A DNA stretch of 51,691 bases, filler included, from Catajapyx aquilonaris (GCA_000934665.2; 2 parts of 2 records of this genome joined end to end with filler, not necessarily neighbours in it), one strand, 5' to 3'. Shown: positions 518-25,896, numbered from the whole stretch's first letter. Notes: generated from the sequence alone by a model not told the origin. Translations and numbers: made by a program.

Positions 518-1161
518 AATGGAAGTCATAATGTGTCAAAACAGCCAGCAACAATTTGTTAGTAGTTAATAAGTGCTCTATTAAGGTTTAATGACTGTTG
601 CATGGCCACATGCCAATATTATATCATATTAATTTCATAATTATTAGGATTGGGCAATAAACAACTGATCATGATGGACAACTGCATGTCAATAGCCAAA
701 AGTAATGTGTTGGCTTGTTATTTCTATCCCGAATGTCATAATATTGCCCACTTCAATTATGGTGCGTATATTATAAAACCAGTACACAGTACACAGTAGC
801 TATGAATTAAAGTGATGTGGTTTGGAGATGCTTAAGTATACAGCCCAAAACTGAAAATCGTTATGCGTAATTCGCAACCTTTTTGGCAAATTAGAAACTT
901 ACACCATGTTGCTAAAAGATTTATAAAGCACTTAGTAATTTCTGATGTTGCATAATATGCTCACCCCGTTTCTCAAAACCACAGAAGGTTTTCCAGCTAC
1001 TTCCTGATACCACGCAATCCACATGGCGTTGTTGATAACGAAAGACAGAAACAGGTTTTTGTGAATGGTGATCCTCGGGCATTTGAGCGATCTGGACCGG
1101 AGGGGAAAAAGAGAGAATCGATTAGAAGTATCCGCCCCAAAGTCTCCTCTCTTGCACTTAC

Positions 1162-1253
1162 TTGAAGTAGAAAAAAATAGCCAGACTGATGCACAGAGCT
1201 ATGAGTGATATGGAGTATCCGGATATGCACAGGGCAATGATGAATTGACGTAT
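1162..1253 (-). CDS. GPCR exon G: stalk and TM1 (IRQFIIALCISGYSISLIALCISLAIFFYFK)
   Basis: 92 nt. Acceptor tttctgcag|ATA, donor TTCAA|gtaagt; phase 0 to phase 2. Hydrophobic class B TM1 with the GYSxS motif. Confidence 0.95.
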
Positions 1254-4200
1254 CTGCAGAAATACACAAAGGTTAGTACATTGCACAAGTATAGATGATG
1301 GTTGCTCCTCTTTAAAGGATTTGCCAGTTTGAACAATCTCATAGCTGTACCTTTCATTTACGCCAGTGCATCGTTAGACATCATAGATACATAACTCAAA
1401 ATTTTTATATAAGTTAATGGCAGGTCACCTTGAGGTCTTCCAGATCCACGCAGGTGGTGTAGTTGGACCAGGGCTGCCCGGAAGCTGGATGCTTGAACCA
1501 AGACCCATTCTCCATGCACAATTTATGAGCATATCCTGTAATTGAGAGGAAGGAATTCCGGGTCACTTCCTACCCCTCGAGAGGCTTTTCCAAGTTTAAA
1601 TCCAAGCCCCCCCTTCCGACCTGCACTTTGGCCTTTTTATGAAACCTAAAGGATGCTTCTGGAACTATAATGCTTCAGGGGTGGGAGCGTTGTCTCCTCT
1701 CTTGTTTTTACCCCCCCTCCAGAAAGCTAATGTGCTTTACGGCCCTAATACACAGGAGAAATGCTCCGACATGACTACAGACTCAGGGAAGCCCCTGACT
1801 TGCGTATCAATAACACGTCATTTATTGGCTTAGTAACACCGGTAATGATCCAGGATTAGGAGGCACTAAGGATGCCACCAGCCTTGTTCCAAATGGCCAG
1901 TCGGTCGCAAAGGGATGGTGATGGGCTGATGGTTGGGGAAAAAGGACCCATTCATTTTGGAGGAGGCAGGGGTCCAGAAAGGGCTGGTAAGACAGGTGAT
2001 TATGCATGCTTTTGCTGAACGGTGTCCTGGGAGCTGATTGATTTAGAGCAGAGAAAAGCTGGGAGTCCCTTCCATACTGATGAAGGGATCAAAAGTTTAT
2101 GGGTTTGCAAATCTTAGTGCACGGGGGTTCCTCACGTCCTGTTTTTTTGTTGCTTTGGGTCAATTTCCTGCGGGGTTTAAAAAAGATCGATTGCAAAAGG
2201 CGGTACATTGGCCCAGAGGAGGAGAAAAACAAGGTGGATGGCGATTCGAAAAACGTGCCCAAGAATGTGGATGGAACTGATTGTAATCGGGTTAAAGGAA
2301 ACGTGACGTGCCTGCGGGTTTGGTCTGACGGGTACTTACTGGATGTGTCGAATCCGGTGATGAAGTAAGGGCAGTTGGTCACTGCGATGTTGCCTGCAGG
2401 GGTGTCGTTCCAGCATGACCAACCGTCGAATGTACGAGGGCAGAACAGACCTGTTGGATTTACAAAAATTTGTAAATATCGCGTATAAAGCAAAAATGTG
2501 GGTTGATCCTGTCTAAATTATTTGCTGTGGTAAACAACTCACTACTGTATAGCTGTGTGTGATGCATGTATCCTGCTTGAGGCTATCGGGGCTGCATTTT
2601 TACTCTAGAGGCTAGTAAGGCAATATCTTGAAATATTTATTGTTCACATGCAATTTATCTGATATGCAGAGCAATCGGGAATGTTGACTTTTTAAATGCA
2701 GGACCTGCGTAATCTACCGTCATCACATGTTGGTCTGATGGAGGGAGTATACGACAGTTACACGGTCCAGGGTGCTGTATTATTCAACGCCTCAGTTGGC
2801 GACCTGTAGAGCGAGCAGAGTACAAGTCGATAATGTATCATCTCTGGAGTAATATGCCTTGCACTGCTTTTGTTTGAACAAATGTCTCATCTGACGTGTG
2901 AAAATGTATGGTTCAATACATTGAGCAAAAAGTAGAGGCGTAACCTGCTGATTTTTACTTCTATTTAATGATTGCGGACCAATGTTAGCGTTGATAATAA
3001 TGGGCTATAATAATTCGATCAGGTGTACGTGACATCATGAGTGCCATTTCAAGAGTTTTGTGCCAACATGCGTGAAATGTTCATTAACGAAGACTACCAA
3101 GTTATAATTTCCTCAACAGCAAAAGCAGTAAGTCAACATACTCAGATAAGTAACTTTTCAGTTGAACTTTCAGAATGTCGCTTGAACTTTGCCAATTATA
3201 AACTTCTAACTATCTGCGACTCCCAATTTTTTATTCGTTGTCTCCCGAGTGTAGGAGTATAGAGAAAGGTCATAATGTAAAAAAAAAGGACTTGCATGTG
3301 TAGGTTGCAATATAAAATGAAATTCCACTTAAAGCGTAATAAACGCAAAATTGGACTTAATCGTAAGTTATTGAACTGTATGATCGTTAAATAATTTTTG
3401 TATTATCCAAGCTGAAAGAGTAACAATAATTAAAATAGCCTATCTGTAATATTTAGAGCCCGTTTTATGCTTGGCGGTGGAATAGATTATGACACTTAAA
3501 CTTATACATATAGACACAGTCTCCAATAATACTATCTCTTGAATTTCACTACAATAAAGTATTACTGCGAATTCCAGGACTAATATTTCATCAATATATT
3601 TTATTAACCACATCCTGGTATCCAATCGAACAATATTATTGCATAGAACAGCTTGGTGGCCCTCGAGTTCCAGGAATTCAATTAACACGCACTATAACCC
3701 CGCAGAAAGCACAAACTAAGCATTCCCACAGATAATGAAGTAGTAAAGTGGCGCCGCAACGCGCAATAAAACATTCGCCTCAATTACATAAATTGTTGAT
3801 TCATTTGTCCATTATGCAAAGGGCGGCGCCAAATAATCACAGGCACGCCTGGTTAAAACACCATCATGCTGCTCTTCTCTATGAGCTTGTACAAACAGAG
3901 TAGTGTGTCGGCTATGGGAATGGTTTCGCTGCAAATCTGACGGACATGACCCCATAATGTTTGTGATGATCCGTACAAACCCCTTGCTTTCGCATTGTGT
4001 GAAAACCTGTCTCTTACTTTGTTTCACCGCCATTTTAACGAGCATAGTTTAAGAGGCACTTGAGCTATTGTGTTTGGGACGCAATCAGTGCAATAAAACG
4101 TCTCATAACTGCGGCTACGTGCGATTGTGAACACTCCGCCAACTATGATGTAATTATGATCGGGGTTTCATTGCACGGATAGTGTGTCGCATCACGATGT

Positions 4201-4729
4201 TGCAGGGGAATCTGGAGAGAGATAGATCGCTGATGGCGCCACGGACTAATTCTGGATACGAGAGCCAAGCTGATCAAATTAGAGGGCAGAAAGTGGAATA
4301 AAAAGGGTGACGGATTTGGCAGCCATTGTTTCCATTTGATGGGAGCGAAAGTCTAAATTGGATCACCGTGGCAGTTCAGAACTGTCTCTCTCTCATACAC
4401 ACACACACACCAAAAGCCCGGGTCATGCTACCTATGTCAGACATTTCGGTTGCTTTGGCCTTCCGACCGTTAAAAACCGTTAAGTTCAGGGCGATGGACA
4501 CGCTTTTGTATTGAAACTTTAAAATAAAGGCAGCTCCCGACTTACGCAGATTCTGACTTCCGTAAAAAAATTTCGACATGAGGTATTTATGACGCTAACT
4601 GGTGCGCCGGATTCCGAAACCACAACACTTATTAAGTAGGTCCCAGATATTTTGACTATCTGTAGGGTACAGTAGCCTACAGAATAACACCAATCCCCCA
4701 AAAACGGTTATGCCTTCGCAAGGGGTTAC

Positions 4730-4790
<61 letters not shown>

Positions 4791-7700
4791 TAATAATAAC
4801 AACAACACCGGGACCTGGGACGCAGCAAAAAGTGTTGTGGTTTCGCAATGTTTCATCAGATATGTCACATGGCTCCGAGTTACTGAAAATTCGTCTTACT
4901 CATAATGTTGCGGAACAATATTTTTTCACATAATTAAGTCGGTGGCTCTCTGTACATTGTTTTCGTCGCGTATCCAACCAGCTTGTGTGGTGGCGATTTT
5001 AAAGGCCACTGAGAAGATGAGAGCCATTACATGGCGATGTGTTAGCAGGATTGGCAATGGGATTCTGGAATGATGGAGCCATCTGCCTCAGCAATTCAAA
5101 GTCGGCCATAAACCCCCGGGACTGGACTTTGGCTGCAGCTATACCATTATTCTCCAGACCATTTATGGAGCGTGTAAAAAGCGATTGCATGGAATCCAGG
5201 AAAAGCAAACCGCTCTCTTTCCAAGCGTGTGATGAAAGGTTGTTCCCAAATTCCGCTTCCTTGATTGTCAACTCTTCTTAATTCGTTAAATTAACACTCT
5301 GCTGTATTTAATGAGCAATTTTAAGTTCGGATTATTGCGAGTTTCTGGGTGTGCAAAAGGTCCCTGTAGAGATAAAGATTGACGTCGAGGATGGAAAATC
5401 AGGTGCTGTTGAAAACAGGACGAGGGTGAGGTGTTGGGCTGAGCGGCATTAAGTGTTTGGTGGAGCTCTAATTCCATCCGGGATTAGTCCTCGGGCCTTC
5501 GGATTACCGGTCGTCTCCTTTGAGATTTGCCGAAGCAGATTCATGAGCGAGGGGTTGAAACACCAAACCCGGCGGAGGTATTGTTTCATGCCCTGATGCT
5601 ACGTACAAGTTTCAATTTCGGAAGATCAGGGCGTATAGGGAAAACATGCACACAAAGTCGATTTTATAGCGTAAATTGTAACGATATTGCAAGGGTTAAA
5701 GGTCACCGAGTCGGAAGAAGGTTGGAACCCTGCATGGCCGGAAGGTCACATGGAAGCTTTTCGCTAATTAGAACGAGTCCTTGTAATAAATTGATGTAAG
5801 ACGCAAGTGGAGCGAGATGAACTGGGTCTGGTCCGGAAATTGGAGGCGCTCCAAAGCGCCTCAGGACGCGCCGCGCCGCCCAAAATCCCGCCTATTTGGA
5901 CACCGTCATTTCCAACTGGAAATGCCTGGGCGCTCTAGACAAAAAAAAACCATTGATTGCAAATTAGGCCTCCACAATTTTACTTGACCTTGCCCGCAAT
6001 TTTTTTATATTTGCAAGTTTCAGCCAATCATGCAAATGGCGGAACATTTGAATTCCAAATGGCGGCGGCTGATTAATAATTCCTGACGCAATATAACCAA
6101 AACAGTAGTCGTCACGCGTGCATTTTTTTTTTACAATAGTTCACACCCGGATTATCCTCGGAGCACATTTGCATATGGTCAACAAGGCACGTTTTGCTGG
6201 CTTCCCAATTAGTGCAAATGTCTTATAGATTCATGGCCTCGAGAGCAAATTGTAACCTGCGGAGATGTCGAAGTCGACGGTAATAACGCCCGGTCAGGTG
6301 TTGTCACATCCCCTGAAGCCAAAGATCGATCCGGTTATAAGAACCGGTCTTAGGTGAAGGACGAATTTGTTATTCACCTCCTTTAGTCCGGAGGTTCAAT
6401 TTGAACTCTGGCGGCTACAAATAGACACGGGTTGAATCGAATTCCAAGCAGTTACTCGTATAAGGCTTGATAGGTCGCTGCTAATATGATGACATCTCAG
6501 AATCGCTGCTTATTTTTAACTAGGGGTGAACCAGTTGGGTGAACCCGTTGCCAAAATTTGGCAACAATGGACGTAGTACCATATGCCACTACCAGGTGGC
6601 TCACATGCTCCCTCTCTGCACACTACTGCCAACTCAGGCGCTCAGGGGGGTATTGGTACTACATGCACGTTGGTGATGAGTCACTGTGGACAGAGTCTCG
6701 CATAGCCAATTCTACTGTACATATATGATATTACGAAAAATTGAGTTTGAAAAGGACAGATTGCTACCTTCTTCTGGAGGAGGAACGCTGCTGAGTTCTT
6801 CCATACATTCGTCTCGTCGACGTGAGAGTAGCTCTTCGACTGGGGATGGGGTCGGTGCCGATGGTGACCACTCGTTGAAAGCGGATTTGGTTATCCCTCC
6901 GAAGACTTCAGTCAGGGACTGCAATTTTGCAGTCGTTTCGTTAGACATTCGAGCAGAGTGCAACGCGGGGTTTAGCTTCAAAGGAGCTAGGAGTGGATAT
7001 CGACTACAAGGAAGGGCTTCACCGTGCCTTTAATTTTTAGCATGGCTCGATTACTTTGGCGGGTTTTGTACTGTACGTACCTCCACTTCAGAGTTTTGAA
7101 GACCACAGCCGGAGTAGTTGGCTCCTCTTCCGTCCCATTCGCCGTTGACGTCGCATGATCTCATTGCTTTAAAAGGGGATTACAAGATTGTTAATCTCTC
7201 AGGTGTTTACGGTCGACTCTGAAGCTTCCGTCTCCACAACAAAGGAGAATAAAGCCAGTTCTATCCACCTGTTGTAGCTCTTTGAAGCAACCTGCAAACC
7301 ATGAGAATTTTGCACACTTGTCAAGTCTCACCCCTATAAATTATTAACACTCAAGTTTGACAACAACCTTGCGTCAAATTGTATATACGACTAATGACAT
7401 ACCATGAGCAGTTAATTGACACTTCTGAGTACTGGCCGGTTAATCCCTCGAATTAGGGTTTGAAACGCGATCTGTTTGTTTGGGGTTTAAGCCTGTGCAA
7501 CCTCGAGAGCCGTTTGTTGGGCGTGATCATTACCGGGGTAGAAGAAGCTCTTTCCAGAAATACCTCAACAGGTCAGCCTGTTCAAGCAATTAGCTCCGGA
7601 TACTATGTCTCCGGACCTTGGTTGCAAACAAAAGTTGCGAGGTGATACACCGCTAATGGCTTTTGAGATATCTTCCTGTGACAGGAGCATGTCGGAAGGA

Positions 7701-10700
7701 GAAAGTCTGGACCTTTTTTTTCAACTTCCAACAGGTGGAGTTTCTTGCCTACATGCAAAGGGGGCTGTGGAGAATAAAATCCGGAAGGTTTATGCCCGGA
7801 AGCGTCCCCCGGAACGTAAAATCCCGGAGCGTGTACTTTTATAGTGTGGAGATACGGCCGAGCTGGAGTTAACGACCGTGCTTCTGAACTATCAAAAAGG
7901 GAAAGCATGCTCTCTTCCTATATAATTCGGTCTAAAGTCTTATATTGGAAAACTTTCTCCTTATTGTCATCCAGCTTGAAAAATATGCATCTTGTTATGG
8001 GTATTAACTTAGTCCTGATCTCCATGCAGATTATAGCCAAATGGAGCGAAATTAATGCGATTGAAAGAGAATTAGCAGAAAATTGCGTCGATCCTATTTA
8101 GGCCGACAGGATTGAACTTTGTGAGTTCATGGTATCAGACGATTGAAGAGGCTTTTAAAGAAAATACGTTTCGAAAAATAATATATGCTCAAAGACTTTT
8201 AAAAAAATTAACAATTGGAAATTATGAAAACTATTCATTGAACAGTAATTACGTAAAGATTTTTTTTTAAAGGGATGAAACTGTAGTTATTAAATTTGGT
8301 AAATGTTTACATTTAGTTCGTCGTCTTGAATCCTTCGCTTAACACTAATTGATGATCTGCATCGTAATCCAATAATTTTTAACTGCAGAGTCATCTCACG
8401 TCTGGTCCATTTCTACACTGAACTTTACACAGGAAAGATATTCCGCACACGTTTTAGAATTACAGGGACGGAACTTTGGTACGATGTGAGCTTGCGGTAG
8501 TTGAAATGAATTTTTCATTATGTTAGCTTATCCATGAGCTATTATTATCTTCACAAGGTTGACTAAACATGGCAATGTGACATGAAATAATTTATTTTTT
8601 GAAGACGTAAAATTCACAAAGATCGTCGACACAATGGAGTGACTTTGAGATATGAACTTCACAGATCATTTTGATTCCAGCATTTCTCTAATTAATCCAT
8701 GACAAGCCAACAGATGGGGTGATTCAAGGATTGTATTATGTACAATGCATAATGAAATTATGATTAATGCTCGTTCTGAATATTAGGCCTTCATTTTATT
8801 GCAGTACATTTCTACCAAACAGAGGGCGATCCAAAGAAGTGAATAATATTCCCATCATCTGTTGCATATCCACCTCCATGCAGCCTTTTGCTGAAGCATA
8901 TCCCCCCTTTAAAAGAGAGCCGGGATCAAAAAGATTAATGAGACATTTCAAGTTTCCAAGAGCTACCTCGGGTGGTGGCCGCATTAAAAACTGTGGCACG
9001 TAATCACTCTGGCGCATAATTTCGGCGAACGCGATATGAAACTTTACAGACATTGATTGGAAGTCCGGGTGACATCGACACTACTCGCCCGGGCCATTTA
9101 TCAAAACTGCAGACAAAAAGAGCATTCACATTGACACGGGGAATTTGTCGCCTGGTCATTTGTCACTTGCCTTTGCCACGACTGTTACGACTGTAGGCTG
9201 GACACGAGGCGCTGGGTGTTTCTCCAGCTGCTGTCGGGGGCCAGCATCCGATGCCGTCGAATTTTCCAGGGCAGTGAACTTTACCTGAGGACATCATTAA
9301 TGCATAGTATTAATAATATAAACAGTTATTTCCAGACCTGCCTCAAATTGCTCTTAAATGAGAACGGTTGTGTGATACATTAAAGTCGGTTGGAGTACTG
9401 CTTTAATTGCGTTATAAAAAGTCAAAGCAGGCGTTGTAGATGTACCAGATACACTATATGAAAGAGAAGAGGGCTTCAACCATGTAACTGACAGGCTTCC
9501 TCTTTTATTTGATGGCCATAAGGGGACATGAACAGCTGTGCTCAGGTAAATGGGTCCGCATTAAAAAGGGCGCTTTGTGGAATAAATCCTCGCAGCCGTA
9601 GTAATCAGGTTCCGCAGGTGTGAAAGCATTAACTGAAGAGCAAATTACACGATCATAATCCATTTTGCCACACTTGATGCAGCCGAAGAGTTGTCACCAA
9701 TTACACGACTACCCTGCATGTAATGGATGACAACCATGACATAAAAGGGGGAAGATGATACGTGGAAACATTCCCCTTCAGATTGGGAACGTCGTACCAA
9801 ATGTGTCACATAGATGGCGCACACTACTGATGACTCACCGAGGACAAATATAGAAGGCAATTTACGGTTTCTGCCATTTTGATTTCCCAACCAAATTATG
9901 AGAGGAATCAGGAAGTATGTGTTGCCTCTCCGCCTGCGTTGAGAAGGAAATATGAACATCCTTATTATGGACGTTCCTGATTAGGCTCCATTCACGTAAT
10001 CCCCGGGAATCTTTCGCATTCTAAAGCCGGAAACGGAAATATAAAATGGCGCTCTTCGATTCCCTTTCTCACTCCTTCATTCCTTTTTTTTTCCTTCCTT
10101 GCATTTTGACGGAATGGGAAGGTGAGGGTGTGGATATGACGTGCCCCCATTTTCCAGGAGGTGGCCTGCAAGAGGGGGGGCGAAAAGGGGGGTTAAAGCA
10201 AATAATGCCTGCAGAGTGTGCCCCCGGAAAACTCCGCAAACAGGCACGGTAGGCACACTCGTCTGCAAACACTCCGGAAGTGGGTGTGTGGGCCCCGCCG
10301 GATTTAACACACACAGAAAAAAAAACGTTGGAGTTAATAAAACCCCGATTTCGAAAATGCATAGTCCGGACAATTGTAGTTGGATCGCAATTTATGTAGG
10401 GTACAAATTGGGTGTGATGTTGCGTCTTTTGTGGGTAATTACAGGAATGCTTTTTAAGTACAGTGAAAGTACAGTGTCCGTAGTACTTTGCGGCGGTACT
10501 TGTTGACGGCTTGTTTGTGAGCTGAGAGTGTACACTAAATGCACGGAAGGATTTTGTGGGTGGATGGCAAAATGAGGTGGATCAGTCCGGTGTGAATAAT
10601 TTATCCGGATGCAGCAGTAGTGTCGCTTGATTAATTCATTTTGACTGAGCCGAGTGTAGGTGCTGGAATTGGACGTGTTTTTGTCACACGGACAAGTGGA

Positions 10701-13700
10701 AACGGCTGGAGGAATCGGCCAGTGTCAATAGTGATCCAAAAAAAAATTCTTGTATAGCTGGTATAGGACAGAAATCACGTTAACATGAAGATATGGCACT
10801 GGCAAGATTGCGTAATACACAAAAGGTTTCCGATAACTTCGCCGATATTGCTGTGGACACAGCTGACTTGCAGTTCTGAAAGTGCTTTTGCCAATAGTTT
10901 CTCTCTCCATTGGTGCTGATGACTGCGATGTACGCCTGGGCTGGAGTTATTATTTCGATTTTCCCACACTCGCCAGTGCCACTCAGGTTGCCCTTTGTAC
11001 TTGGCATGACGTTTGAGTTTGACGTGAAATCATTCGCACGTATTTCGCCAAAAGTTGGCTTGAAATCACACATCGATCCAACATGTTTAAGCAAGATATT
11101 TCACTCCGGAGCATACAACAATTACCAGGCTTAAAATTTAAAAATGTGCACTTTGTTGGGCAAGAACAAGAAAGAACTCTCTAGAAAAATTCCCTAGAGT
11201 TGGTATAACTCTCTTTAACGGGTCCTGATCCGGATCATCCATTTCCGGGCCAGTAAGGCAGCAATTCTCCATCGGAGCTGGTGAACCCCAGCCGTCTGTG
11301 TTGCCCCAGGAAACTAACGAAGCTGAGACCAAAACTTTGCCAGGTTTGCAGAGAAACACTCTCCCTTTGAAGTGTATTCCGTGATAGGGAACCGAGAGAG
11401 AAAAATCGCGGAAGATTTTTCTTCCCACGCCCGCATTAATCACCGGATAACTTTTTTTCCTCCCCGTTCACTCTTCTTACCCTTTTCGCGATCTTATTCA
11501 CAGTTTCGGTCATTGCTCGAGATGCAATCAATCTATGTCAGTCGCTTGCAAGACCCGGGCTGAAAAAGGAGAGAAAGAATATTTGACAGGTCTTATTGAT
11601 ACTCGAGTCAGGTCCAATGCATTTTTATAAGAGGAGTTTGCCCTAGCCTATATTCATGAAGCATCCCCGCAGCATTGGAGCTCCACTCTGTTTATGGCGC
11701 TCCTGGGAATTTTTTATACCGGGCCTTTAACACCTCGTTTATCGGCCGTTGGTCAAAGGACGTGTCCTTGTATTTAGAAAGGGGGTTTCTGAACTGAAGG
11801 AGGTGGATAATTTTATTATGGATCACGCAGTACTATTTTTTTGATCACCCAACATGTCGACAACAATTAACCCACATTATTTTGATTATAGCCTCATATG
11901 TACAGTTAGATTTTTAGTCACATTCTTCATTTGCTAATAAAAACATTTATAGATTTTTTTTAAAAATAATTTGGGCATATCTGGATTAAGTCAAAATTGG
12001 CAGTACAACCTCTCGACAAATATTTCAAATATTATAATAACATATGCACATTTGTTTTTGAGCCACAGTGTCCGGTTAAGTTGAAAATCCAGATATACGA
12101 CTGTATGAGCAGGTGGCACAAAAAGGTGATAAAAAGGTGTCTTCCCAAAGAGTGGAAAAGGAACTGCTCGTAAAGCTTGTAAATCCTCTTAGAATGGTTG
12201 GTTCCAGAGCTGGGAAACTTCCTGGTACCGAGTCTATTGAATGGAAACGTGCGATAAGGAAGATCGACCTTTGTTGAATGGACACGGAGCTTTTTTTTAA
12301 ATGCTAGGAATGTTGATGCCAAGTTAGTACAGGGCGGAAATTAAGTGGAAATGAGTGTTCGTAATGAGACCAGTTGATCAGTAACATTATGACTTTGAGT
12401 TTGAAAATTATCTGACCTATTGATGAACCCCTTAAACTTATATAAGTGCCTCAAGCAAGAAAATCAAATAAAAAAAACTTTGCCCAAAGTTAATATCGAA
12501 TGCCGCATTTTTTGGCAGTAATTACGTCGGTAATTGATGAATGGAGGCTCCAGCCAAGGGCAAAGAACGAGTACGAAAAACAAGTGAGACTGGATAACGA
12601 ACCTCCTTTGAAGTTAGGACAATGCCGACAGAAAATTCGCCGTCTTGGAAGCGGTGCTTTAGGAAGTTCTAACTGACTGAAGAGGGCATGCTTGAGCGAG
12701 CAATTAAACGTGTTCAGTAGTGTTATTACGCATGCTTGTTAAGATCATGTAATTATTAAACAGACTAAGCATATATAGGCCCAAAATGTCAGGCATTGTG
12801 AAATATGTCACACTCGAGTCTTGGAATAATCAGCGCTGTTAATATTCCGCCACGTTTTGTCACCTGGAAAGACAAATTCATTGGGGAAATTTGACAACGA
12901 AAATTATTAGCTTTTATGGAATTTAAACTCATGCTGATTTTGTCTTCGTTTCTAAAGAGGAATTGCAAATTAGTCCATTGAAAGGGCTGGAAAGCTAATT
13001 TAATTCCAATAACAATATACCCTAATTTGCAATGTGTACCAAGCTCAAACGAAAACAAAGCCATTCCGCACGTTTTAATGAGACGGTAATGATGGCAGTG
13101 GTGCCGCTGCAGCATCTAAAATTAAACAAATCCCAAGGTTTCAGCTCTTGCCATTTGCCTCATACCACACTCTAAAAACACACACAGGTAACCCAAAACT
13201 GTAGTTTACAAACACTGTACATTTCACGTGAAACTCTATTCAACAGTAAAACACAAGGATTTACTTTTTCTCATTTGCCTCGCTCCAGCATCTAATATTA
13301 GGAGCCTCCAAGACTAGCGGAGAAATTTCCTCGGCACATTTAGAAGGATTATTGCGGATTTTCCACATCCTCGTGAATTGCTAAACCCGCGCAAATGTGG
13401 GGCTTAACTTGGCTAAATCACTGTCAGGTTGCTCTGGAGAAAATAATATTGCCTTCATTTCGCGAAAACCATATTTTGTGCTCACAGGTTCAATATTTTC
13501 CACTGCTTTTTATTTGAAAAACAACTGACCTGATTTTATTCGTATTTATGTACACAATTAAGCTATGCATGCGGCCCTCGTTATAACCATGTAATTGTCC
13601 CTTTGATGTCCCCTCTTCATTCGGGGCTTTGACCTGTACCGAGGCGTTCAGATGTAAAACCGTGTTTTTCTATTGGAAACCAATTTACTAGGAGAAACTT

Positions 13701-14634
13701 GGCCGGGAGCCGACCATTTTGAGGGGGTAATACTGGAAGCCCATGACATCTTCCCATGGGTCACATTTGGGAGGCAACATAAGGGTTCAATTCCTGGGGA
13801 TCTTTCCATTTTCATTCCACCTTGATAGCCATTCAGGGACACGATATTAGCAGAGGCGGTTTTCTTACGTCGCCATCCCTTGGGACACCGATGTTGACAC
13901 AATTTAGCCGCAAAGAAAGGCGACCTTTTAGGAGAATAGAGTAGGGGACAGCACGACAGCCATCGAGACCTCAAGAGATCTCGGAGCAATTTCGCCAGAA
14001 CGAGTTCTTTCCCAAGGTGCGGACATTTTCCCCTGTCACTCGGTTCGTTCTAGATTTATTTTCTGACCAGGTGAGATGGCCAGGACTTTAAAGCTCTCTT
14101 ACAAAAAAAAGTCATTTTTTATAAGTTTATGAGTTTAGAAGAACAAAAAAAAGTTTTAGAAGTTAATGATGCATCGTTTGTTATTTCCACAACTGATTAC
14201 CTGCGCAGTGTCTCGTTATTGCTAACATGTTTTCTTCCCTTTTATTGGACCGTTTTTAAAAAAAATCATCTAAAAATGGTTTAACTGGCCGTTTCTTTTG
14301 ATCGAATTAGAGCTAACGACTCGTCCTTTTCATGTGAACATGCTGCATCATTACGCAGGGAAGTCAGTGCACTAGTGCAATGACTGCTGTATTGCAGGAC
14401 CAATTAAATATTTAAAATTCGGTTTGAAAGGAGCGGGCGCCATAATATCGAACGCCCTTGGAGTCTGAAGGTTTGAGTTCCATGCAAAAATAATTCGGAT
14501 CGGGACTTTGAATGGCCTGGGTACTCACCTGGGAGATGTGGCTGGTGCTGGTGTGCCTGAACGCACAGGCTGTACGCCTCCAGCATTAGAGGAACCATCC
14601 GGTCCTGTTCTGTCAACCAACCAGATGTGGCCAT
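1162..14634 (-). CDS. Class B1 GPCR, calcitonin/DH31-receptor-like, 5' part (7 coding exons, two hormone-binding domains plus TM1); continues beyond the left edge
   Basis: Manually spliced: MATSGWLTEQDRMVPLMLEAYSLCVQAHQHQPHLP/GKVHCPGKFDGIGCWPPTAAGETPSASCPAYSRNSRGK/AMRSCDVNGEWDGRGANYSGCGLQNSEVE/LNPALHSARMSNETT...[124 protein letters not shown]. All junction phases are compatible. [28 protein letters not shown] and GYSISL..IFFYFK are typical of protostome calcitonin/DH31 receptors. The C-to-D junction is the least certain. Confidence 0.9.
1429..1535 (-). CDS. GPCR exon F: HBD2 Cys5-Cys6 ([36 protein letters not shown])
   Basis: 107 nt. Acceptor attacag|GA, donor CTCAAG|gtgacc; phase 1 to 0. 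Carries the CxxNGxW and WSNYTTC motifs. Confidence 0.95.
2340..2450 (-). CDS. GPCR exon E: HBD2 Cys2-Cys4 ([37 protein letters not shown])
   Basis: 111 nt. Acceptor ccaacag|GT, donor TCCA|gtaagt; phase 1 to 1. Hormone-receptor domain signature CxxxxDGxxCW-x12-CP; lies inside ORF 2089..2493. Confidence 0.96.
4730..4806. repeat. (TAA)n microsatellite ending in (AAC)n
   Basis: Directly visible. Confidence 0.97.
6768..6975 (-). CDS. GPCR exon D: linker or alternative N-terminus plus HBD2 helix with Cys1 (...[23 protein letters not shown])
   Basis: Donor GAAG|gtagca is phase 1 and joins exon E to give [18 protein letters not shown], the expected Cys1-Cys2 spacing. The 5' end is uncertain: either a phase-0 acceptor tcctttgaag|CTA at 6975 or an independent ATG at 6948, with an in-frame TAA upstream at 7032-7030. 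Confidence 0.85.
7081..7166 (-). CDS. GPCR exon C: HBD1 Cys5-Cys6 (AMRSCDVNGEWDGRGANYSGCGLQNSEVE)
   Basis: 86 nt. Acceptor ccccttttaaag|CA with a TTAAC branch-like motif upstream; donor GAG|gtacgt; phase 1 to 0, the same as exon F. Contains RxCxxNGxW and NYSxC. Confidence 0.85.
9171..9284 (-). CDS. GPCR exon B: HBD1 Cys2-Cys4 (GKVHCPGKFDGIGCWPPTAAGETPSASCPAYSRNSRGK)
   Basis: 114 nt. Acceptor gtcctcag|GT, non-canonical donor AAG|gcaagt; phase 1 to 1, the same as exon E. CxxxFDGxxCW-x12-CP spacing is identical to exon E. Confidence 0.9.
14529..14634 (-). CDS. GPCR exon A: first coding exon, HBD1 helix with Cys1 (MATSGWLTEQDRMVPLMLEAYSLCVQAHQHQPHLP); exon starts at 14657
   Basis: Strong acceptor ttgtttccttcag| at 14657. 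In-frame TGA two codons before an ATG in AAAATGG context. Consensus donor CAG|gtgagt in phase 1, compatible with exon B. Confidence 0.85.
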
Positions 14635-17600
14635 TTTTCATCCACTCTCTCTGGGGACTGAAGGAAACAAATTGAAACATCATTCGTTTCAAGTACAGCC
14701 TGTTCTATAGGCTACACACTCAAGTGTCACACACACATGGTGTTGCTTTAACTTGTGTAAGAGCAACAACTAGAGGATTAGTAAGATGAAAAATTCACAT
14801 TGAATTTTTCCCGGTTTTTTAGCAAGGTTGATATGAATGATTCAGTGAGGGGAAGGAAAAGATGACGTAAATTCTGAAGCTGCGGTAGTGTAGCTATACC
14901 GCAGCCGGCTGTGCGGTAAGGCGCCGGAAATTCTGTACTGATTTATATATTGCCTGGGTGTTCCGGTGGACAATATTTCACCTGGATCTAGAAGCATAAA
15001 TTTACTGGGCTCGTCGCCGTGAATTAGCCATTTCGCTCGGGCAGGAAATTACCGGCACTGACAGAGACAGAAAAAAATGTTCCCCTGTGACTCCCTGGTC
15101 ATAACGTATGAAATTGAAGAGGATGAAGACACTTGACAGGAAATTAAGCTTCACACACTATATTGACTGAATCTACATGATGGATTAAATTCGGGTTGGG
15201 CAACTGAGCCCATTTCATTGCGAAAATGTTACCCAGCAATATATGCTAAAAATGGCCCGAGTAAAACAATCCGGAGAAGAAAATGAAACCGTTACCTCAC
15301 CACCAGACATGTATGTGTTGCGTTAAGTGAAACTTCAGGCGCAATATTAGATCTCTCAGGCAACGGAAAAGAAAATATATATTTTCCCCCCCTGAAAGCT
15401 GCACCTGACGCCATAACTCTGTTGGCAGCACCAGAAGGCGCCTGCAAATCGACCTTGCAGGCGACCCCAACAATACACCGCCCCATAAAAGAACGCCTTT
15501 TTTTCTTTCTCAAATATCCCACCCCCTCCATCCTCTGAAATTGTTTACCACCACCCTCCAGACCAACACCATCTTTCTTCATTACCCGCAAGTGTCAGCT
15601 GCAATATCCCTTCGGCACCAAACATTCAACACCCCACTTTGCAGGGGAGACTAATTGGATTAAAAAAAGACAAGGTGATAATCTGCAGGAAGGCTTCGGA
15701 TAGTAAATCCAATAGCAACAGGTACGTGGTTATTAGGAAGCCCTGTTCATGCCAATCCTTGCACAGTTAAGCTTCACACAGAAGAGGAAAAGTGTCCCTG
15801 TTTTACCTCATCCTATAGAGAAGATAAATGGCTCGTCAGGTTTGATATTTTCCCGCATGCTAATGTAATACTGTGCAGAATGAAGTTAATTAAGACAAGA
15901 AATGAAAGACTGAACAAGTCGAAAACATGCTAAAAATTAATGTCGGTTTCTGATTAATTTCAGAGTTTCCTATTATACATGAATAGCCTGAAGTCCTGAG
16001 AATCAACAATTCGTAACTTCTGAACTGGTGCCCTATGGACATTAATTAGGAGACATCGTGAAAGCTTGTGAGTCTCCAAATGCAATTGGGACAAATATGA
16101 TTGCGAAAAAAAACCCGGTGGACGAAGTAGAGGGGGCTCATGGATCCGCAGTAATTGTGTTTCCATCCTGCCACGGTTGTTTGGAATAAGAAGCGAGGGT
16201 TATTCCTGCGTGGAAGCACATAAAAGAGTGGGGTTGGAGGTCTCACAAATCACTTTTCTGGAGCCCTCCATAACCTTCGCCGCGAGGCAATTCCAGACCC
16301 AGGATTGGATCCATGCGGAAGGGACAAAGTGCTCGCAAATGCAAGGTAAATGGGCCAATATCTCTTCCAGACCAAGAGAAAAAAAAATATATAGAGAGAG
16401 AGCCAAGCGATTATTCCGTACTGTATTCCGCGAAGAGTTTCAAGGTATAGCTGTGCAGGAATATTTTTGTCTCGCTAGTTACGTGCAATGAACCATTTCC
16501 TGAACATGAGGGAAAAAATAGCTGACTAGAAGATGAGGTTTTATTGGGTGCCCCAATCAAATTTGAGAAGGAGCTGTCATGGCAACCTAATTGGCGAATT
16601 CGTGCTACGCAATAGCGACTTTATTTTTAGCGAGTAGGGTTTTGGCAGTATCGCTTTCTATCCAGGTAATTAAGCTGCTGGCTGGTTAACCTTTGATGTT
16701 GCATAAGAAAAGTTTGTTTTCGAGGCAAAATCTGAGGCTTCAATTTAGCTGAAGATGCGCATCGTTATTACAAGAATTTGATATTGTACGTTAATTATAT
16801 GAACAGAATTCCATCGTTTGCGTTCCCAGATATTGAGATGCACATTGCAGCAATTTTTCGCAATAATTAATTATTTTATATATAGGATTTTTTTTGTAGT
16901 AATTGTTGGACTCTCCACTTCGGCAATGCGCCACCCTGTATGATGTCGAGGATTCTCCTGAGGGATTTATGGAATTTGGAATCGCCAGTTGTATTCCCAA
17001 TCTGGAAACCAATCACTGCGGGTGTTTACTAAAACTTGGTCGGAACCGAAACTGGATCAGTCCTCTTTATACCCAGAAGGGAAATGACCCGCAGCGATTA
17101 ATATCGATCGGTGCCGAGAGCACGTATCCACAAAATTTATTGTTTAGTCCCTCTCCAATAACCCACGAATTTTTGTTTGTTTGTCGACATGTCCATACAC
17201 CTCAAAATCAACTTTGGTTCCCATTGAAATTAGTGGTCTAATCTGATTCGCATCTGGAAACGTTCCAGATGCCTTTTCTTCTCATCAGTGTAGTGTGGGC
17301 TGTAGCAATTTGGAAACTGGCTTTTGGGAGGGGTAATAAATGGGGGCATTTCCATCTGAGGCTTTACGAGGCGAAGGTAATTCGAATGAGATTCCTGTAT
17401 CCGGGGCGACGATTTGGTGCTAGGGTTTTGCAAAGACCGGACTTTGCGGCCAAGGAAGTCGGCCCCAAATATAGCCCAGGCCCGTCAGAGACCAGAAAGC
17501 AATCATCCTCTAGCCGGATTTCGGCTCTTTTCAGACCTATTCCGGACCCATTTGACCTCTCACTCGAGGTTGGAATGTCCTGAGACCTTTGAGGCACGAT

Positions 17601-20600: not shown

Positions 20601-23600
20601 CGCTCTGATTGGATCTGCAAACTTGTCTTTTGTGCCCAGAAAAAAAGCAATATTTTATAGCAATGCCACATATTGTGCACAATGTTTCAAGACTTGTTAA
20701 TCTTGGGGATTTGCACTTACCTTTTTCCGAGTATGATGTAGTCAGTATGTATAGGAGTACACGAATCCAGCTGCCAGATGGGGTCAGAGCGGTCTTTGCT
20801 TTGAAGAGGCCACTCCAAAAAGCCCATCTTTCGGCTCCCCTGAAACCGAGTCTGCGTCGGGGATCCCAGCACTCGGCCACGCCTCGAAACTTGCCCCCCC
20901 ATCCCTTTTCACATATTTCGATATTTCATTAAATTTGCTGATCAATATCATGCCTCACAATTTCTATCAGTTTTTATAATATTATTTATGAATCAGTTAA
21001 TGCGGAATTCATAATCAGAATGTTGCACGTGCCGCCTGAAGGTCATTATCATTTTGGGAACATTAATTCAACTAATGGTCAGTTCATGCCCGTATGAAAT
21101 GGCCGCTTAATTTAACCAACATTTGACAAGATCAAAGCATTCAAATATTTTACTTATTCAAACATGCTGGCTGAAAGATCCAAAAGGTCGACCTTTTCAG
21201 AGCAGATTATGACTTGCAGTGACAGTTGAAATTGTTCATTACCAAGTATAAAAGCGCAACTACATCACTTAATGGCTGTAAGCTGCTATTACAGTACACT
21301 CTATATAATCTTGTTGGCATGGATAACTGATGTAAATGTTTCCACACATTTCCAGATTCCAAAGCAACCAACGTTGCAACATGAGCCAAGTAAATTCTGA
21401 CGATATACACGCTCGCCCGGAGAACAAAAAATGCTTGAAACCCTCTTTTTCTCCTCTAATGAACCAGTCATTCCATCCCCTTGTGACTGTGACCCTTAAG
21501 CCTTCAATTTCCTATGCCCCCTCCATAATCCTCAGCTCGACTCCTCTGTCAGCTCTCTCACTAGACTAGAGACTCTAGCTATCCTGGCTTGCTCTCAGTC
21601 ACACTCTATCTTTCCCTCCTATCTCCAGCAGCATCCCTGGAGTGGAATCTCACTTGCATTGTTTTCCAGACCATTACTTCAATTTTCCCGACGACTTCCC
21701 CTTTGTGATGATGCTTGCTCCGGGCTTACTTTGATATATATTTTTTGTGCCCTCCAACAATTCCTGGCTGACGTCTGGAGCATGCTACAGGTAATTTAGC
21801 TTGCATAGATCGTAGACATGCACTGCCGGATAATAATTAGTAAGTGTGTTTGCTCAGTTTGCCAGTAAATAATCAAGTTGCAACGGAAATTGCATTGGGT
21901 AATCAAGTTGTTGCATAATTGAAGTTATTTAATTGACCTTATTTTAGATCGAGGCGATTGAAAAGATATCGCGGAAAATAACAGCCAGATATTACATACA
22001 AGGCGACTTTTATTGGACTTTTTCCGAGAGAAAAAGAGACTGTCAAGCTACAGTCTTAAATCAAACTGTGGACTACACGTAAAGGGGCCCGTTTATCATG
22101 AGAGATGATGGATGATATTGCTGTGACATCGCACACTGCTCTTTGAAATATTTATTAACAAAATTACAGCTTCAAAAGTGCCTGTCGTCTGGACATGTTC
22201 ATTCACAGCCGTTCAAACACGCAACAAAGGGTATGCGAGAATATATATATATATATATTTTTGCACAAAAGAAGGGGAAACGCCTGGAGGTATTTTTCAA
22301 TGCATTTTGCTTCGAGATTCAGTCAGTGTGCGAAGTTATGTGGGGTTGTCCACACGGCTGGCTCTAGATGGCTGTGTAATCCGGCGTGAAGCATTTCCAA
22401 TGCAGATTGGAACTACAAAGGGTAAAAATGTAATCGTGAAGCTTTGGAAATCCATTTTCCTGGAAGCAACGTTTCACATCAAGGCGCCTGGTGTAATATA
22501 TTACGGCGAGACGAGAAGATTGGTTTGTTTACATTCTAACCAGGCTTAATTTTGAAGCCTGGAGTTTCTTATACAGTTGCTCTTTCACAGGTGCACGGTG
22601 TAGCCTTGTGAAGTTTGTCGCACAATATCATGGTCTGCATCTGAAAATTGTGTATTTGTTAGCGTTTGGTAGATGATAAAAAAGGGCAATAAAAACGATA
22701 ATTCATTACATATCGTTTATTAACACAAAGCAATATTGTCAAATAATTGTAATTAATACCATAAAACATATACCTGCCGACTATAAAAATTTAAGATACA
22801 TTAACATACTCTTGAATCAGTACGCTTTTCTAATTCTGCAATTTTGGGTCCTGACAGTAAAATGTTTCACCTCATCACTCACGCGAATTTTTTTCGCTGC
22901 GCTCTCGGTTCGACGAATTTGTAAAAAGGCTGTAATACAGAATATTAGTACGCTTTACAAAGGGCTTTCCTTACTTGGGGACCTGAAAAAGCTGTCCGAT
23001 TCCGCGTCAGACAAATTCCGATACATGTCTCCGACAAAAATCCGATCCAGACCGGCAAAATATTTCCTGGACAGACTTTCCCATATATGCTGGTCAGATT
23101 TCTCTATACTGTAGGACTTGTTATATTATATTATTTTAATTGCTACAATATTGAAATCAATCTGGATTAGATCAAAGAGGTGCATGTCAAAACAGTGTAG
23201 CTTTCTCCCATGTTGCTTATCAAAGTAAACCACTTTCATTCTATCTAATAAGCACTTATGCCATGCTTTCATAATGGAGAGCTTCACTTGCAGCATCTAA
23301 AAATAGTAACTTAACTAAATATTGAACCTTTTTTTGACATCAATATGTATGCGCTTATCAGACATCCAATTTCACCCTGAAAATGCCAAACTATCGGTTT
23401 TTAATGTATCCTCTATAGCAAGAAATATCGTACAAAGAGAGCTGTAATAGCTCCCTGATTGAATGGCTGCATGCTCTTTTACTTGCAGTTTTTTCAATAA
23501 CTGATATAACAAAAGCCTCGGACTATGTTCACAAAGTTGGCCGTTTATCAAACAGCCCGCGACTAAAGCCGAATAAAAATGGGGGACCGAAATGGCCACG

Positions 23601-25796: not shown

Positions 25797-25896
25797 NNNN
25801 NNNNNNNNNNNNNNNNNNNNNNNNNNNNNNNNNNNNNNNNTTAATTAATTAANNNNNNNNNNNNNNNNNNNNNNNNNNNNNNNNNNNNNNNNNNNN
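25797..25896. other. Artificial contig-joining spacer
   Basis: 44 N + TTAATTAATTAA (stop codons in all six frames) + 44 N, with 25796 bp to the left and 25795 bp to the right. Confidence 0.97.

Follow-up and report, generated by a model that had tools for sequence, protein, structure and literature searches.

A stretch of 51,691 nucleotides from Catajapyx aquilonaris (GCA_000934665.2), filler included and referred to below as the window, was analysed for the receptor gene on its minus strand. We consider it likely, from the sequence and its relatives, that this gene encodes a class B1 G protein-coupled receptor of the calcitonin-receptor/DH31-receptor group with two hormone receptor domains (HRM) in tandem, a distal one (HBD1) formed by exons A to C and a membrane-proximal one (HBD2) formed by exons D to F. 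By alignment the gene is the orthologue of a receptor type that is already modelled in databases and widespread among arthropods.

Gene structure and domain content

Six intervals of the minus strand (14634-14529, 9284-9171, 7166-7081, 6975-6768, 2450-2340 and 1535-1429) splice into a single open frame of 244 codons. Exons A, B and C are 106, 114 and 86 nt long and exons D, E and F 208, 111 and 107 nt, and because of these lengths the introns fall in the phases 1, 1, 0 and again 1, 1, 0. The introns from A to F measure 5244, 2004, 105, 4317 and 804 nt, every exon has an AG acceptor, and the donors of A to F read GTGAGT, GCAAGT, GTACGT, GTAGCA, GTAAGT and GTGACC. The donor of exon B (9171, AAG/GCAAGT) thus opens a GC-AG intron, GT being present at all of the other donors examined (7/7). 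The 105-nt intron between C and D contains in-frame stops and must therefore be spliced out for a tandem product to be made. After exon H the gene crosses the left edge of the window, which holds its 5′ half with the first two transmembrane helices (TM1 and TM2) only. The features are as follows.

Exon A, 14529..14634, minus strand: putative start Met, N-terminal helix and Cys1 of the distal HRM (HBD1); ends in phase 1; donor CAG/gtgagt.
Exon B, 9171..9284, minus strand: core of HBD1 with Cys2-Cys4, FDGIGCW and CP; phase 1 to 1; GC donor.
Exon C, 7081..7166, minus strand: end of HBD1 with Cys5, NGEW, NYSGC and Cys6, and start of the linker; ends in phase 0.
Intercassette intron, 6976..7080, minus strand: 105 nt; read-through would give VRTVQNPPK and then a stop (9 codons).
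Exon D, 6768..6975, minus strand: Ser/Thr/Pro-rich linker with an NETT sequon, then N-terminal helix and Cys1 of the proximal HRM (HBD2); ends in phase 1.
Exon E, 2340..2450, minus strand: core of HBD2, CPRTFDGWSCWNDTPAG...CPYF.
Exon F, 1429..1535, minus strand: end of HBD2 with the WFKHPASGQPWSNYTTC loop; ends in phase 0.
Exon G, 1162..1253, minus strand: transmembrane helix 1, placed by sequence and splice sites and aligned to TM1 of the orthologues.
Exon H, 965..1091, minus strand: first intracellular loop and TM2, KSLKCPRITIHKNLF...; its 3′ end (~965) is good to a few bases.

Searches with tblastn using the two-HRM orthologues described below land exactly on these exons. Exon A aligns to the helix-plus-Cys1 segment of other distal domains; tblastn matches join exon C to the distal domains of decapod orthologues and the helix of exon D to the Palaemon and Procambarus orthologues; exon E is 82-85% identical to decapod orthologues and exon H 56-67% identical to orthologues (tblastn). 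A chance open reading frame was considered and is ruled out by the in-frame splicing, the HRM and 7tm_2 scores and the orthologue alignment; on these grounds the locus is a real gene, far beyond chance.

The domain content was examined by Pfam scans run exon by exon, with cut-offs of 26.2 bits for HRM (PF02793) and 20.6 bits for 7tm_2 (PF00002). Exon B alone reaches 37.7 bits for HRM (E 2.8e-9, profile 3-33) and exon C 14.9 bits (profile 43-64); the corresponding scores of exons E and F are 45.0 and 25.5 bits, and the reading frame containing exon H matches 7tm_2 with 25.2 bits at profile positions 29-78 of 250. Each half carries six Cys and the motifs FDG, CW, CP, NG.W and NY..C, so that the HRM with six conserved Cys that marks class B1 is found in both domains, which are 38% identical to each other. 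The HRM core motif occurs at two places in the six frames of the 51.7-kb window, both of them the exons listed above, and the same scan of the whole window gave no extra HRM exon. As regards the group, the nearest database proteins are arthropod receptors named calcitonin gene-related peptide (CGRP) type 1 receptor-like, calcitonin receptor or DH31 receptor, and the proximal ectodomain is nearest to that of the human calcitonin receptor (CTR) and calcitonin receptor-like receptor (CLR) and keeps the WF[KR]HP...W.NY..C loop.

A preliminary description of this locus had proposed the six exon intervals with their repeated phases, two complete six-Cys domains with the motifs named above, and an in-frame join of C to D through the linker with its NETT sequon. 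Frame, exon lengths and splice sites bear out the exons and phases, both domains are complete, and the join and the linker are present in the spliced translation; the two HRM matches that it expected from Pfam were obtained with exons B and E, each above the cut-off.

Two-HRM receptors in other arthropods

The same architecture recurs in predicted proteins of many arthropods. With exon E as query, a word search gave 17 proteins, and six of these (from Palaemon, two Penaeus, Macrobrachium, Panulirus and one unnamed source) have two HRM stretches followed by 7tm_2; a word search with the exon B reading frame against longer proteins gave no candidate. A full HMMER search with exon B against 1.84 billion representatives yielded 13 matches at E<=0.001, none below 1e-10. 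Eleven of these have at least two HRM stretches, five of the eleven also have 7tm_2, and the matches include Ischnura elegans (P0027), Cloeon dipterum (P0029) and Centruroides vittatus (P0033). A profile built from six two-HRM proteins found 381 proteins at E<=1e-30, and 57 of the best 120 were scanned with Pfam. Among the 51 arthropod or unnamed proteins scanned, 18 have at least two HRM stretches, 32 have one and one has none.

Altogether, models with tandem HRM and 7tm_2 were found in 18 named arthropod species, comprising decapods, mayflies, a damselfly, a termite, a cockroach, a scorpion, a horseshoe crab, mites and ticks. Five are decapods, five are insects (Ischnura, Cloeon, Neocloeon, Cryptotermes and Blattella) and eight are chelicerates (Centruroides, Tachypleus, Oppia, Brevipalpus, Rhipicephalus, Haemaphysalis, Dermacentor and Ornithodoros). 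These predicted proteins, named calcitonin gene-related peptide type 1 receptor-like, share with the window gene the order of distal HRM, linker, proximal HRM and 7tm_2; examples are those already named from Cloeon dipterum, Ischnura elegans and Centruroides vittatus, together with Penaeus indicus P0006, Rhipicephalus microplus P0050 and Tachypleus tridentatus P0038. The spliced window protein aligns to them from the distal domain through the linker and the proximal domain to TM1-2, with 27-40% identity in the distal region and 37-63% in the proximal one, although its linker is longer than in most of them. The same conserved distal residues are found in the window protein and in these relatives.

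Some of the database proteins show other arrangements. Tachypleus tridentatus P0035 (isoform X3) has four HRMs in the order distal-proximal-distal-proximal, the pairs being nearly identical; it is either a genuine four-domain receptor or a model that fuses two tandem paralogues. Three of the HMMER matches of exon B (P0023, P0024 and P0028; 300-722 aa) contain 4-6 HRM-like repeats and no 7tm_2 match, P0023 consisting of five near-identical 53-residue units.

State of the distal domain

The distal domain evolves faster than the proximal one, with a mean pairwise identity among 14 sequences of 38.9% vs 64.4%. Despite this divergence the window copy keeps 10/10 invariant and 3/3 near-invariant columns of 22 other distal domains, namely five Cys, DG, CW, G, CP, G.W and Y..C, and Cys1 on the helix is present too. 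What distinguishes it is the ten-residue WF[KR]HP...W loop, which is missing from every distal domain compared. At the position of the DGW Trp of the proximal domain and CLR the window distal domain has Ile; chelicerate distal domains retain Trp there. The best sequence matches of exon B in the PDB are the ectodomains of PAC1R, GHRHR and VIPR2 (E 2e-4 to 1e-3), CLR following at E 0.2. Conservation across arthropods suggests, at the level of sequence, a distal domain kept under constraint despite the loss of the pocket loop.

An AlphaFold2 model was obtained for the Cloeon orthologue, a relative of the window protein and not the window protein itself, from a 23-row alignment (mean predicted local distance difference test, pLDDT, 80.6). 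Residues 6-95 form a long helix followed by strands (block pLDDT 79-91), and after a hinge at 111-116 (pLDDT <50) comes a second helix-plus-strand domain. The predicted packing of the proximal against the distal domain in this orthologue scored 0.00 (mark 0.34; without controls), which counts neither way.

Age of the duplication

When 55 HRM domains were placed in a tree (63 columns, quick search, midpoint root), all 19 distal-labelled ones, that of the window among them, fell together with the distal domain of Oppia in one 20-row clade with a support of 98 in the Shimodaira-Hasegawa-like approximate likelihood ratio test (SH-aLRT). The Oppia distal domain had been labelled single, its proximal domain having escaped the cutting pattern. 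Both distal-type copies of the four-HRM Tachypleus model are among the 19, and proximal and single domains lie on the opposite side of the tree. The single HRM of Anopheles joins the stem of the distal clade (support 86) on a zero-length branch, a placement that we do not trust. Since all distal domains fall in one clade, the duplication looks old.

A second tree was built from the proximal domain and the seven-transmembrane (7TM) core of whole receptors (60 rows; P0113, P0124 and P0131 were dropped, as the cutting pattern missed them). All two-HRM arthropod receptors and the window protein stand in a 48-row clade (SH-aLRT 84), which also includes one-HRM receptors of Daphnia, bugs, moths and a mosquito; within it the window protein lies outside the decapod, insect and chelicerate subclades. 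One-HRM malacostracan receptors form a separate 10-row clade, and decapods have members in both a one-HRM and a two-HRM clade. One old cassette duplication followed by later losses is the simplest reading, the number of losses being unsure because many of the one-HRM rows are partial models.

The preliminary description had taken the two triplets of exons as an internal three-exon duplication, in agreement with the repeated phase pattern and with the 38% identity of HBD1 to HBD2. As read from the domain tree, this duplication is ancient and common to arthropods and not peculiar to the genome of the window, and the three-exon HRM cassette was probably duplicated before the chelicerate/mandibulate split. 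The tandem architecture proposed there likewise gains support, since orthologue models show both HRMs before 7tm_2 and align across both domains and the linker. A proximal copy canonical for calcitonin/DH31 receptors agrees with the solved human CTR and CLR ectodomains as its nearest structures, and a distal copy diverged yet intact with the 13/13 conserved columns retained.

Alternative explanations for exons A to C

The strongest competing explanation is that the two cassettes are mainly used alternatively, so that most mRNAs encode one HRM, either by starting at or near exon D, at the linker Met (…ARMSNETT…), or by joining C to G and skipping D-F, with the tandem form minor or absent. Phase 0 is common to the ends of exons C and F and to the start of exon G, hence C-to-G and F-to-G are both in frame; isoforms are listed for several orthologue genes; and the Homarus model P0012 (583 aa) begins at the linker Met and has one HRM. 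Nevertheless, the tandem form is modelled in 18 named species, and thirteen distal positions would not all stay conserved in a domain that was rarely translated. The single-HRM entries of Homarus and Procambarus may also be truncated, Procambarus P0011 being labelled partial and beginning inside the distal domain. We therefore regard mainly alternative use as unlikely.

It is far less probable that exons A-C are pseudo-exons, a decaying remnant of the duplication upstream of a real gene that starts at exon D. The signal peptide missing before exon A, the fast divergence of the distal domain (35-46% identity to orthologues) and the non-GT donor of exon B would fit such decay. However, the three exons are free of stops and frameshifts over 7.5 kb, the conserved positions are all retained, exon B by itself exceeds the Pfam cut-off, and GC-AG introns in the AAG/GCAAGT context are a functional minor class. 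Least probable of all, and hardly credible to us, is that exons A-C form an upstream gene of their own, encoding a small soluble HRM protein that would act as decoy or binding protein. Two-HRM fragments without 7tm_2 do occur among the database matches (P0022, P0026 and P0031), but they resemble truncated receptor models, P0022 running on into the proximal domain. Exons A-C have no secretion signal, a stop would follow exon C only with the 105-nt intron retained, and the orthologues link both domains to the 7TM.

Several points weigh against a single tandem receptor as we propose it. The orthologue proteins are mostly automatic gene models and not cloned cDNAs, and the joining of exons A to H in one mRNA, the C-to-D junction included, is predicted from genomic sequence and from these models. 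TM3-TM7 lie beyond the window, so intactness is read for the 5′ half alone. The whole-receptor tree, in which the row of the window protein has 41% of its columns filled, puts this protein only in the broad clade (SH-aLRT 84) and in no starred subclade. Ligand binding by either domain is a prediction. Finally, exon A encodes no hydrophobic signal segment, and a tblastn search of the window with 25 two-HRM protein N-termini (without composition correction) revealed no convincing upstream signal-peptide exon.

Regarding the start of the protein, a Met opens the frame of exon A, and a stop lies two codons ahead of it. The five insect models likewise lack a signal segment, their start lying a short way ahead of the first helix; a hydrophobic segment opens most of the decapod, scorpion, horseshoe-crab and tick models. 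Either the signal exon is absent from all such models or TM1 acts as a signal anchor. At 20738-20815 (minus strand) lies a short frame similar to the opening and helix portion of exon A, and also to the N-terminus of the Neocloeon orthologue (tblastn E 0.002). It was tried as an upstream signal exon, having a Met before it and a GTAAGT donor after it (20815-20738), and was rejected, as its donor is in phase 2, incompatible with exon B. The frame could be what is left of an exon A copy, or the resemblance may be coincidental.

Relation to known receptors

The window gene belongs to the same DH31-R/Hec-R group as the DH31R of Carcinus maenas, CT/DH-R1 and R2 of Rhodnius prolixus, and DH31-R and hector of Drosophila, a group that is related to vertebrate CALCR according to the part of the source available (PMC3961327). 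In the accessible text on deorphanised DH31 receptors, six conserved N-terminal Cys are reported (PMC6039563, PMC3843727) and the Carcinus maenas receptor is given 438 aa (PMC6039563; PMC3843727); the window proximal domain has the six Cys and the NG.W and NYTT sites as in these receptors (PMC6039563, as far as the text was accessible). Christie 2015 (PMC4696782), Zandawala 2013 (PMC3843727) and Alexander 2018 (PMC6039563) describe, in the portions available, one hormone receptor domain or six N-terminal Cys, and the available portions of Cardoso 2014 (PMC3961327) and Veenstra 2014 (PMC4237046) do not mention a second HRM. No published description of the arthropod tandem-HRM layout was found in a literature search that left subscription journals and supplements outside; the layout is nonetheless visible in the public gene models of many species.

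Human CTR and CLR ectodomains (5II0, 3N7P/3N7S, 6E3Y) share the WF[KR]HPAS..W.NYT.C loop with the window proximal domain, and they differ from the window gene in having one HRM only. Repeated HRMs before one 7TM are found in teleost calcitonin receptors (Tetraodon P0082, Channa P0046 and Siniperca P0039), with 4-5 HRM stretches in 6/6 named fish proteins scanned, and were reportedly described by Nag et al. in 2007. The four Tetraodon HRMs form a clade of their own (SH-aLRT 99) apart from the arthropod distal clade, and the fish repeats thus arose independently of the arthropod duplication. Three of the four lie on short branches (0.08-0.22), the first on a long one (4.15). Furthermore, the teleost-like protein P0025 keeps the WF.HP loop in 3/4 repeats, in contrast to the old, diverged and loop-less arthropod distal domain.

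Proposed role of the two domains

In the two-domain model of class B1 receptors the ectodomain takes the C-terminus of the peptide and the peptide N-terminus activates the 7TM, and in crystal structures of CLR and CTR the ligand-site residues hold the amidated C-terminal end. Exons E and F find their best solved-structure matches in human CTR (5II0) and CLR (3N7P), with E 1.6e-7 each. The proximal domain retains the DGW motif and the WF[KR]HP...W.NY loop, and this loop aligns residue for residue with that of human CLR. Docking places CLR residues D70, G71, W72, R119, T120, W121, T122 and Y124 at the ectodomain ligand site (PMC11494111, in the part of the text available); in our alignment R119, T120, W121, T122 and Y124 of human CLR fall in the loop that the distal domains lack.

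Reasoning from the family, we propose that the proximal domain would most likely dock the C-terminal part of a DH31/calcitonin-type amidated peptide, whose N-terminal part would then activate the 7TM core. The distal domain is loop-less and in the window has Ile at DGW; canonical binding of such a peptide to it is improbable. This domain would more likely be an accessory module on a flexible hinge than a second copy of the same binding site, and it might tune access to the proximal domain or its selectivity in cis, bind another ligand or partner, or serve folding and trafficking. The preliminary description had suggested selection of HBD1 for a different ligand or role: the part that stood is a conserved domain without the loop, and the role itself we infer.

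A wider proposal, which we put forward tentatively and hold to be possible but not probable, is that the two-HRM form was the ancestral arthropod calcitonin/DH31-type receptor, in which the distal domain lost its pocket and became a built-in accessory module or a sensor of a second ligand such as calcitonin-A/B, the one-HRM receptors of flies, mosquitoes, moths and bugs being secondarily simplified. If this were true, the distal module may set selectivity or gating in cis, a job that falls to separate RAMPs for vertebrate CTR and CLR, which work with RAMP partners (PMC6283891, in the available text). If the distal domain shapes ligand choice or trafficking, it would matter for deorphanising the arthropod calcitonin-A/B peptides, for the tuning of selectivity in receptors without RAMP partners, and for receptor-targeted tick control and crustacean aquaculture physiology. 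The importance of these results lies in a second HRM conserved across much of Arthropoda, ticks, shrimps and basal insects included; for the window alone the gain is a correct gene model.

Other features of the window

Between 14700 and 51691 no gene-like stop-free frame of at least 130 aa was seen on reading, the frames of this part not having been scanned against the family library, and the 37 kb upstream of the first receptor exon may be gene-poor. Two runs of 44 N, at 25797-25840 and 25853-25896 with 12 bases between them, are presumably assembly gaps. Within the D-E intron, runs of a single residue (N, I, Y or L) appear in all six frames at about 4595-4933, which points to a long trinucleotide microsatellite.

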